Positions 46,584 through 51,170 of a DNA stretch of 64,000 nt are shown piece by piece; the first letter of the stretch is position 1, and the number at the start of each line of letters is the position of its first letter. The DNA comes from Escherichia coli. GTDB taxonomy: Bacteria > Pseudomonadota > Gammaproteobacteria > Enterobacterales > Enterobacteriaceae. The translations under genes and the position numbers were made by a program. The stretch is from NCBI RefSeq assembly GCF_017348835.2, contig NZ_CP071375.1, one strand, 5' to 3'. Under the pieces are notes generated by a model. That model saw only the letters and a program-made list of their open reading frames with translations, did no database searches and was not told the origin of the DNA.

Positions 46584-49500
46584 TCAGAACGACCAGTTCA
46601 CACCAGCCACCGCGTTCCACGGGGATTCCACATCGGCACCGTTGCTATACCCCACCCCGAGATGCCCGCTTAACGTACTGCTGAATGAGGCTTTAATACC
46701 TGCCTGGTATATTCCACGTCTGCCCGACAAATCATTGACGAAATTACCGTCATTATTCACCTTCACCCGGTTATCATCGACAAATTCTTTGCGCACAGCC
46801 GCCTTCAGCCACGGCTCAACTTCCATACCGTTCCCCAGACGCATGTTGTAACTCAGCGTTGCACCCAGTTCACGATATATACTGCGGGTATCGACTGATT
46901 TCGATTCCATGCCATTGGATAAATGATATTCGGGGTTATCAGCGGTGAACCCCGTTAACGATGCATACGGCGTCAGGTTCCAGTTACCATCAGTAAATCG
47001 CATCCCGGTTTCAATGTGACCGCCCAGCCCGTTGCTGTGGTAACTGCCATTGGCGGCTCCACCGCTGCTCATTTTACCGGCTACGTTACTTTCAAAACGG
47101 TTCAGCTTCACGACACCGTCCAGATAGAAACCACTTTCATGTTCCCAACTGGCATAGCCGCCCAGAGAATAACTGCCCACACTGCCATGTCCTCCGCGAT
47201 CAAAACCGATATGTGAATGGGAATAACCCATAAAAGCGCCCAGCGTCGCAATCCCCTCAGGAATATCATTACGGCTGTCGATCCCCACTGTCATTCCGGT
47301 CAGCGTCTGCTCAAACCCGGCCCCCGCATCGGTGGTGACATTATTACGGGTGTTATACGTCGCCCCCCAGACATTATTGTTGTGTGAACTCGCTTTCATT
47401 ATGTTCAACCGCTCGCGAATACTGTTTAGCTCAGCATCAAATACCAACGGTAATGTTGCTGCCATATTGAGTACGGCTGCGGTAGAAGGCGTGATGCGTT
47501 TCTCCGGAACGGGTGTCGGCGTTGGCTCGGGAGTCGGGTCTGGTTTCGGATCCGGTTTTGGGTCTGGTTTTGGATCCGGCTTCGGATTTGGGTTGGGATT
47601 TGGGTTGGGATCCGGGTTGGGTTTGACATCATTGGTCAGGTTCCAGTTGCTGTTGCCATCGCTTTTCAGGACATACTCATAGGTCCCAAGATCAACGAAA
47701 CCGCCAGTATTGCCCAGCGAAAACGAAGCATCCCCTCCCCCTGTTTTCACCAGCGTCATCGCGTCGTCAGACTGAGGACTGACGCCGGTATCCTGAACAA
47801 AGATTTTAAAATTACCAGTGGCGTTGTTGCTGACGACCAGTTGATCACCGCGGGAGCCAGCAACGTTGGTATGCAGGTAGAAATTACCGCTACCGGAAAG
47901 TTCATTGGTTGTCAGCGTATTGTAGATACCGTTAGTTGTGGCAGGCGCTGCTGTTTGTGCTGATAAATAAACATCACCGTCGTTGAGTAGCAAACTGTTT
48001 ACTCTATATTCGCAGTTGCTGGTACCTGCACAGGAATTATTGCTGTTAAGCCAGACACTGCCCCGGCTGGCAGCCATCAGGTCGGCAAGCGTTGTATCGA
48101 CGCCATTTCCCAGAGTTAATGCCGCGCTATCGGTAATCCGGACCGCCCCTACGAGTTTAACTGGCGTAACATTATCCCGTGGCGTCATTAACGACAGGCT
48201 TCCTGTCGCGCCACTGACCGATGCATCCGCCAGCGTACCTGCGTAGACGATTGCCGTACCGCCAGCGACCTGGAGATCTTCTGCCCGGGCCAGAGCCTGA
48301 AACTCATCTTTTGACCGCCCAAGGGTATATTGCCCGCCAGAGTTAACCTTTGTAGCGGAGTCCTGACCCAGGTTTTGCATTGCACCACCCTTGCCAACCG
48401 TGGAGTAGCGAGCTTCGGTACCTGCTAATACCAATAAATTACCACCATTTTCCAGCAACATATTGGTCGCTAAATTTCCGGCAATGGAAAAGGTGCCGTA
48501 CTGGTGAGTACCGCTGATTTCAATACCGTTAGCTGTGCTCGTCTGGAGAGCGGCACCGCTGTTCTGGACGATATCTGTCGCTTTGCCATTATCATTGACT
48601 GTCAGCGTACCGCCTTCATTTATCGTTGTTTTTATTGCCTCACCGTTAGCCGAAACTGTTTGTATTCCGCCGTCGTTAATCGTTGTCTCATTCGCCACAC
48701 CCTCGACGATTTGTTCGCCGCCGGTGAGCGTCGTGCCTGTCGCAGTGGCTTTTATTTTGACGATCTCCCGTCCGCCCGTATTGACCTGTGTTTTGGCGGA
48801 AGTGGTGTCTGACTCCACGGTTAACACGCCGCCATTTGCCAGCAGGATATTGTTCGCCGCATCCTGCTCGATGCTGAACACGACGCCATCTGCGCGTGTC
48901 CCTGTGACACGCGTCGCCTTGGTGGTTGCAACCAACGCGCCCTGGCTACTCTGCTGTATCCCCGTTGCGCTGCCTTTCTCCCGCACATCGAGTGTGCCGC
49001 CGTCATTAAGCACCGAGTTTTCAGCCAGACCGCCCTCATTAACTACCTGTGAACCGCCATTAATAATGGAACCTTCCGCTGTCCCGTTTGCCATAATTTG
49101 TTGTAGGCCAGAGACGATATCGGTGTTGATTGCCTTACCATAACTCTGAACGGTTTGCGTGCCACCATTGATGTGTGTTTTATCTGTTGACCCACCATCA
49201 ACAATTTGTTCACCACTTTCGAAATTTGCCTCAGTGGCTAAACCATATACCGTTTGCTTGCCACCTTTGATATTTGCTTTATCAGAAGTGGCACTGGCAT
49301 ATATTGTTTGGGTGCCCGCACTATTAAGTACAGTGCCAACATCTTTTCCATAAACATCCATTTTGCCGTTGACATTAATAATCGTATCAACTGCCCGGGA
49401 ACCAGTGACGACTGTTAATGAGCCAGCGTTTTCCAGCACTACATTTTTAGCTTCTGAATTCCTGATGTAGAAAGCATCACCATAACTGTTGGTTCCTTCG

Positions 49501-51170: not shown

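Follow-up and report, generated by a model that had tools for sequence, protein, structure and literature searches.

Which gene occupies the long minus-strand reading frame beside ssrA in this 64,000-nucleotide stretch of Escherichia coli DNA (hereafter the window, meaning the whole stretch), and from which of its start codons is it translated? The listing of open reading frames (ORFs) with translations gives a single long ORF at 46584..51299, with 1571 codons counted from a GTG start; ATG 51170 lies in frame, 43 codons 3' of GTG 51299, and opens a 1528-residue protein beginning MNRTSPHYCRRSVLSLLISALIYAPPGMAAF. An earlier note, made from the sequence without database searches, had proposed a repetitive autotransporter adhesin with an ambiguous start. 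The 1571-codon frame with an alternative start that it described is present, and the frame is open 5' of 51170; the upstream start codon is GTG, not the ATG given there (it would still be read as Met). We propose, with a probability of about 0.93, that the gene is ypjA, that its product, a classical type Va autotransporter adhesin, belongs to the AIDA-I/Ag43/TibA structural class, and that translation begins at 51170, the upstream codons being untranslated leader.

46584..51170, minus strand: ypjA/ehaD coding sequence (CDS), 1528 codons plus a TGA stop at 46584-46586, from the ORF and the RefSeq CDS in E. coli PE164

The identity of the gene follows from genome comparison. A megablast search of 5426 complete E. 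coli genomes returned 100% DNA identity over 5.5 kb in E. coli PE164, a pig isolate whose RefSeq CDS corresponds exactly to 46584..51170 of the window and is named 'adhesin-like autotransporter YpjA/EhaD' by the Prokaryotic Genome Annotation Pipeline (PGAP). The K-12 MG1655 orthologue, YpjA b2647 (NP_417134.2, 1526 aa), shares 95% amino acid (aa) identity over the full length (1528/1526 aa), and the neighbours are those of K-12: a pinH (recombinase) remnant, the DUF5507 gene ypjCB and the tRNA-Ile gene ileY. Full-length identity to K-12 YpjA and the same chromosomal position place the protein in the YpjA/EhaD orthologous group, and K-12 YpjA and EhaD of enterohaemorrhagic E. coli (EHEC) O157:H7 have the same start codon and domain order. 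Because the DNA matches the PE164 CDS completely, the protein matches b2647 at 95% and synteny is kept, the locus is, on sequence comparison, the known and already annotated chromosomal E. coli gene ypjA (ehaD in EHEC), with its reading frame intact. The existing annotation is confirmed: a known accessory adhesin is present as an intact if slightly unusual allele, the short start is right and the ssrA site is empty.

Following the signal peptide, which is described with the start codon below, the protein falls into these predicted regions:

48003..51083, minus strand: passenger, residues 30 to ~1056, predicted right-handed beta-helix of ~18-19-residue coils (Pfam, TIGR04415, periodicity and AlphaFold2 (AF2))
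47634..48002, minus strand: putative pertactin-type autochaperone/junction, residues 1057-1179 (PF03212; PDB sequence match to pertactin 1dab 420-534)
47499..47633, minus strand: Pro-rich (PNPDPNPNPNPNPKPDPKPDP...) spacer, residues ~1180-1224, predicted to be disordered (12/24-nt tandem repeats; low predicted local distance difference test score (pLDDT))
47397..47489, minus strand: predicted alpha-helical linker plugging the barrel, residues ~1228-1258 (AF2 helix at model residues 228-258)
46587..47378, minus strand: predicted 12-stranded outer-membrane beta-barrel translocator, residues ~1265-1528, ending ...NWSF (PF03797, TIGR01414 and AF2 strands)

Pfam assigned eleven AIDA repeats (PF16168, E 9e-138), a Pertactin domain (PF03212) at residues 1057-1179 (E 4.8e-45) and an Autotransporter domain (PF03797) at residues 1267-1506 (E 5e-46), which, with the RefSeq name, bears out the call of an autotransporter adhesin. 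NCBIfam added twelve strand-loop-strand repeats (TIGR04415) and the barrel domain TIGR01414 (E 3e-97). The passenger contains 15% Gly, 13% Thr and 9% Asn and repeats with a period of 18-19 residues (autocorrelation 0.15, versus 0.084 +/- 0.009 in shuffles). Its AF2 model (residues 30-1050) is entirely beta, with a mean pLDDT of 91.6, and the only strong Foldseek matches to that model were Ag43, Ag43b (7koh/7ko9/4kh3) and TibA (4q1q), at E-values from 1e-22 to 1e-14. A sequence search of the PDB, with matches to Ag43, TibA, BrkA and pertactin, agrees with these structural matches. Repeats, period and all-beta model together support the beta-helical passenger of Gly/Thr/Asn-rich units that had been read from the sequence alone.

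The C-terminal AF2 model, computed for the final 528 residues from an alignment of 30 sequences (mean pLDDT 82.6), comprises the end of the beta-helix, the disordered Pro-rich spacer (pLDDT < 50 at model residues 184-222), a 31-residue helix and twelve strands (model residues 265-526). Foldseek placed it closest to the BrkA beta-domain (3qq2, template modelling score 0.90-0.92) and then to the barrels of EspP, Hbp, AIDA-I and NalP (3slj, 3aeh and 4mee among the matches); the linker helix of the YpjA model has its counterpart in the helix of the BrkA and EspP barrels. The earlier note had made its call depend on a C-terminal barrel, and a barrel is present in the model, with twelve strands, a pore-filling helix and a terminal aromatic Phe. 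A beta-helical passenger followed by a pertactin-like autochaperone is likewise predicted, and the architecture is, as judged from domain matches and models, that of a classical type Va autotransporter. Arrays found by Tandem Repeats Finder at 47534-47625 (12/24-nt) encode the (P-x)n spacer, which is two residues longer in the window than in K-12.

Where translation begins is decided by the few nucleotides before each in-frame start and by what the resulting N-terminus looks like.

51180..51183, minus strand: Shine-Dalgarno (SD) core GAGG, 8 nt 5' of ATG 51170, invariant in 8/8 aligned loci
51084..51170, minus strand: putative Sec signal peptide, residues 1-29 (MNRTSPHYCRRSVLSLLISALIYAPPGMA, followed by AF), from n/h/c-region anatomy and the SignalP report for the K-12 orthologue
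51171..51299, minus strand: in-frame 43-codon extension (GTG start), most likely untranslated 5' leader, without SD or Pfam match

For each in-frame start, SD strength was scored as the pairing of the preceding 20 nt with the 16S rRNA 3' end. ATG 51170 has GAGG at 8-nt spacing with a duplex free energy (dG) of -5.8 kcal/mol, and ATG 51179 would have to use the same GAGG at a spacing of 0. The best pairing at GTG 51299 is -1.9 kcal/mol at a spacing of 1, that is, no usable SD, and the earlier statement that the upstream residues lack a ribosome-binding site holds. On signal-peptide anatomy, which had been suggested for judging the alternative starts, Met 51170 opens a standard Sec signal peptide of the kind that type Va autotransporters carry: as read from composition, the n-region has a net charge of +3, the 13-residue core has a mean Kyte-Doolittle value of 2.18 and the c-region reads PPGMA/A. 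A 29-aa signal peptide was assigned to K-12 YpjA by SignalP 6.0 (2026 paper, PMC13101318). The N-terminus at MNR is conserved in paralogues P0128 and P0149, and the equivalent of 51170 is the start used by PGAP in PE164, in the revised K-12 annotation (NP_417134.2), and in O157:H7 and four more alleles. With the only well-spaced SD before an ATG, a signal peptide beginning at that ATG and annotations that agree, translation most likely starts at ATG 51170, as the earlier note had called it, and the 43 upstream in-frame codons most likely belong to a conserved untranslated leader and lie outside the protein.

Two other starts have to be weighed. Translation of the full 1571-codon ORF from GTG 51299 would give YpjA an unusually long N-terminus, comparable to the extended signal peptides known from some autotransporters; many TibA-like relatives carry such signal peptides (PF13018), and every E. 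coli allele examined, at ypjA or at the ycgI locus, keeps the 43-codon frame open. We nevertheless find this start scarcely credible. Besides having no SD, the extension gave no match, the extended signal peptide region (ESPR, PF13018) included, when the first 120 residues of the long ORF were searched against Pfam at E up to 10; its peptide is weakly hydrophobic and of mixed charge; it is not annotated as coding in any of the RefSeq records inspected (7/7); and the K-12 annotation was itself revised to the short form. The paralogue at the ycgI locus of E. albertii (P0149, 1475 aa, passenger 41% identical) starts MNRNRPYIFRRTLLSLLI, and there a TAG, a 1-nt insertion and, 12 codons 5' of the ATG, a TAA interrupt the extension frame in otherwise conserved DNA, so that the extension lacks conservation as coding sequence. 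A start three codons before 51170, at ATG 51179 (MKFMNRTSP...), is very unlikely rather than scarcely credible. It would lengthen the n-region by Met-Lys-Phe, and the extra Lys would fit a signal-peptide n-region; the codon is in frame and invariant in the eight aligned loci, so conservation cannot decide against it. What speaks for ATG 51170 instead is that GAGG, the sole purine-rich tract, abuts ATG 51179 and lies 8 nt from ATG 51170, and that all RefSeq records inspected and all gene-called paralogues start at MNR.

Several further points weigh against an adhesin translated from 51170, together with the fact that ATG 51179 is as conserved as ATG 51170. The start assignment, most likely as it is, stands on sequence logic and annotation. 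Surface display and an adhesin role are predicted for this allele, by analogy, from its sequence and the literature on YpjA/EhaD. A sigma-70-like promoter was sought by consensus scan on the minus strand of 51171-52200 and none was found. The AT-rich 5' end and upstream DNA would fit xenogeneic (H-NS) silencing in the laboratory, base composition being the sole basis of that suggestion. Finally, at least 80% of ypjA is present in 2440/5426 complete E. coli genomes, and because only these keep it the gene is dispensable, accessory rather than essential. The last point would also suit a functionless, decaying gene, a relic that survives in this strain only by chance: fewer than half of the complete genomes keep at least 80% of it, insertion sequences, frameshifts and truncations are seen in ypjA of other genomes, most strains have the paralogue at ycgI only as a deletion remnant, and the literature records ypjA serving laboratories as a neutral integration site. 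Such decay is unlikely here: the 1528-codon frame is uninterrupted, every domain match lies far above its threshold, and the ratio of non-synonymous to synonymous change (pN/pS) against K-12 is 0.25 over 1526 aligned codons and 0.06-0.3 along most of the length, which indicates purifying selection. Forced expression, moreover, gives a phenotype according to reviews.

A functional ypjA is thus preferred to a relic, and its variation is uneven. In one pairwise comparison with K-12, with small counts, pN/pS reaches 1.19 and 0.58 in the first two 100-codon windows (50571-51170, codons 1-200), so the distal tip of the predicted beta-helix may be the variable part; the differences from K-12 YpjA cluster in the first ~200 residues. 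The allele is uncommon: across 46000-51500, two complete genomes are at least 99.9% identical (PE164 and F2_81, both from pig) and the next best is 97.7%. Lengths of ypjA alleles ranged from 1526 to 1577 aa across the records seen.

YpjA shares with Ag43, AIDA-I and TibA the repeat type (PF16168/TIGR04415), the beta-helix fold and the combination of autochaperone and barrel, and its eleven PF16168 and twelve TIGR04415 repeats with an 18-19-residue period are those of a self-associating autotransporter (SAAT). Head-to-tail self-association, which makes cells aggregate, is a feature of Ag43, AIDA-I and TibA, to which YpjA may be likened by its repeats and predicted fold alone. It differs from them in a passenger about twice as long and in the lack of an extended signal peptide, whereas several TibA-like relatives do have PF13018. 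Scores against the Ag43/Cah (NF033177) and AIDA-I (NF033176) equivalogs were 331 and 265 bits, versus a cut-off of 1200, and by these scores YpjA is a relative, not a member, of both. No cognate heptosyltransferase gene (aah/tibC), as found with glycosylated AIDA-I/TibA-type adhesins, nor any other glycosyltransferase gene is annotated next to ypjA, a statement about adjacency only; upstream come a 39-codon ORF, the pinH remnant and ypjCB.

By analogy with the established type Va pathway, the 29-residue signal peptide would direct Sec export and be cleaved after Ala29, and the beta-barrel assembly machinery (BAM) would insert the C-terminal ~265 residues as a 12-strand barrel, with the helix before it as plug. 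The ~1150-residue passenger would be threaded outward C-terminus first, as a C-to-N hairpin, and the pertactin-type autochaperone would nucleate a right-handed beta-helix in which about fifty coils of 18-19 residues stack, and which the Pro-rich spacer may hold away from the membrane as a stand-off. According to reviews citing Roux 2005 and Wells 2008, forced expression of YpjA/EhaD brings more adhesion and biofilm, and reviews trace the cryptic status of ypjA in the laboratory to Roux et al. 2005. A 2022 review describes the mechanism of YpjA as not established and its structure as unpublished. Base composition shifts along ypjA, from 52% GC at its 3' end to 44% at its 5' end and 34-39% in the DNA upstream, and a literature search on H-NS or regulation of ypjA returned nothing specific.

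The one feature of the locus that goes beyond routine lies at the 5' end, where DNA around the start is shared with a second autotransporter locus.

51150..51355, minus strand: conserved leader and translation-initiation block, ~-185 to +20, shared with the ycgI-locus paralogue and containing the 39-codon ORF
51235..51354, minus strand: 39-codon ORF, 'ATPase' or 'hypothetical protein' in RefSeq
Counterparts of the leader in aligned loci: L014 2796-3021; L015 2801-3021; L002 4001-4359 (E. coli CFSAN029787)
L002 3657-4359: ycgI pseudogene of E. coli CFSAN029787, leader joined to the last ~115 barrel codons

When ypjA of the window is aligned with its E. albertii paralogue at the ycgI locus, 70-95% of positions agree from -185 to +20 and only 40-50% further upstream and in the passenger CDS, with a smaller conserved island at ~-350 to -290. 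Nearly every E. coli genome carries a second copy of the DNA from ~-360 to -30, 88% identical, upstream of the ycgI remnant. That remnant lies beside minCDE, ymgJ and ymgI, and over its last 345 nt it shares 94-98% identity with the 3' end of ypjA; with a ypjA-like leader and 3' end, ycgI is a ypjA paralogue with an internal deletion, which in most E. coli copies runs from ~30 nt 5' of the ATG to ~codon 1413. Intact ycgI-locus genes occur in E. albertii (P0149), E. coli O139:H1 P15-25 and a metagenome contig (P0131). Like ypjA, the ycgI-locus autotransporter has an MNR-type signal peptide and the conserved 5' leader and initiation region; the passenger of the E. albertii gene, by contrast, is only 41% identical.

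The leader gave no sign of being a structured RNA. An Rfam scan of 45900-52200 at E up to 1 found tmRNA only and nothing in the leader; the single-sequence fold had a z-score of +0.33, with no unusual stability; and RNAalifold on eight leaders, which are closely related sequences, gave a covariation term of +0.29, with compensatory change at 2/60 pairs. One of these pairs falls in a predicted helix between leader GGUCUGGUGCCUG and codons 3-6 (CAGGACCAGUCC). We considered sequestration of the start site, opened by translation of the upstream ORF, and dropped the idea because the duplex between leader and initiation region was energetically no better than shuffles, 148/300 dinucleotide shuffles matching it. 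Distant blastn searches of the leader within E. coli found only the ypjA and ycgI loci and nothing upstream of other autotransporters. A scan for exact leader 22-mers among GTDB species representatives returned three small non-Escherichia contigs only and is uninformative on any wider spread; the contigs are labelled Terrisporobacter mayombei, uncultured Clostridiales UMGS1323 and a Collinsella metagenome-assembled genome, and are probably E. coli contamination.

Nor did the 39-codon ORF behave as a conserved peptide. Variable sites were spread 10/10/9 over the three codon positions, which is no coding signature, and with no Pfam match the name 'ATPase' is unsupported; the name is presumably inherited from an earlier, longer annotation of b2647. 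Peptide homologues are confined to Escherichia and Shigella and include numerous amino acid variants and some frameshifted ones, and in E. albertii the frame stays open from an internal ATG. At the ycgI copy, the validated small-protein gene ymgJ overlaps the region of this ORF; upstream of ypjA, the frame of ymgJ runs for only 11 codons.

The leader is the sole non-routine feature of the locus, a conservation island for which coding tests, RNA-structure analyses and Rfam gave no signal. It is far better conserved between E. coli and E. albertii (70-95%) than the protein that it precedes (~41% aa), and it has been kept even in front of the ycgI deletion remnant. Both observations make it conceivable, though on balance doubtful, that the ~200-nt block (51150-51355) is a dedicated cis-regulatory element of the YpjA/YcgI clade, acting as an operator/promoter module or as a control element in the 5' untranslated region. 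Such an element, if real, could explain the laboratory silence of the YpjA/YcgI adhesins. The leader shared with the ycgI locus is a cheap lead on how cryptic E. coli autotransporters are switched on; we offer it as a lead, not a finding.

On the 3' side ypjA faces ssrA.

46061..46423, plus strand: ssrA (transfer-messenger RNA (tmRNA), tag ANDENYALAA), by ARAGORN and Rfam RF00023 (292.8 bits); its 3' end is an unoccupied CP4-57-type attachment site
46551..46574, strand not assigned: GC-rich hairpin AAAGCCCAC-AGAT-GTGGGCTTTTT with a T-run, read from the sequence in the spacer (46424-46583) between ypjA and ssrA

The two genes converge, with 160 nt separating the ypjA stop codon from the ssrA 3' end, which is the adjacency that the earlier note had described as abutting. 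In K-12, by contrast, the cryptic prophage CP4-57 sits between ssrA and ypjA, and psaA, a 14-bp duplicate of ssrA, lies 160 nt from the ypjA stop; as psaA stands at the same distance there, the window shows the empty attachment site. A 501-bp probe across the direct ssrA-ypjA junction was contiguous in 1385/5426 complete E. coli genomes. The hairpin is likely a bidirectional terminator, judging from its sequence, and a consensus scan marked a terminator-like site on the minus strand at 46535..46521.

Upstream of ypjA, the DNA-invertase (pinH) remnant occupies 51578-51745 (minus strand), and a ~60-bp fragment at ~51767-51826 matches a region annotated 'transposase' on a plasmid record; together they suggest an old mobile-element scar. 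Beyond them ypjCB (DUF5507, 484 aa) is intact at 52105-53559 (minus strand), with 34-39% GC, and is split into ypjB and ypjC in K-12. The tRNA gene at 54310-54385 (minus strand) is tRNA-Met (CAT) to ARAGORN and tRNA-Ile (ileY) in RefSeq, the former being the usual miscall of the lysidine-modified CAU isoleucine tRNA. Further on, past ileY, an alpha-amylase-family gene is annotated as intact in PE164, its K-12 counterpart being the pseudogene ygaQ.

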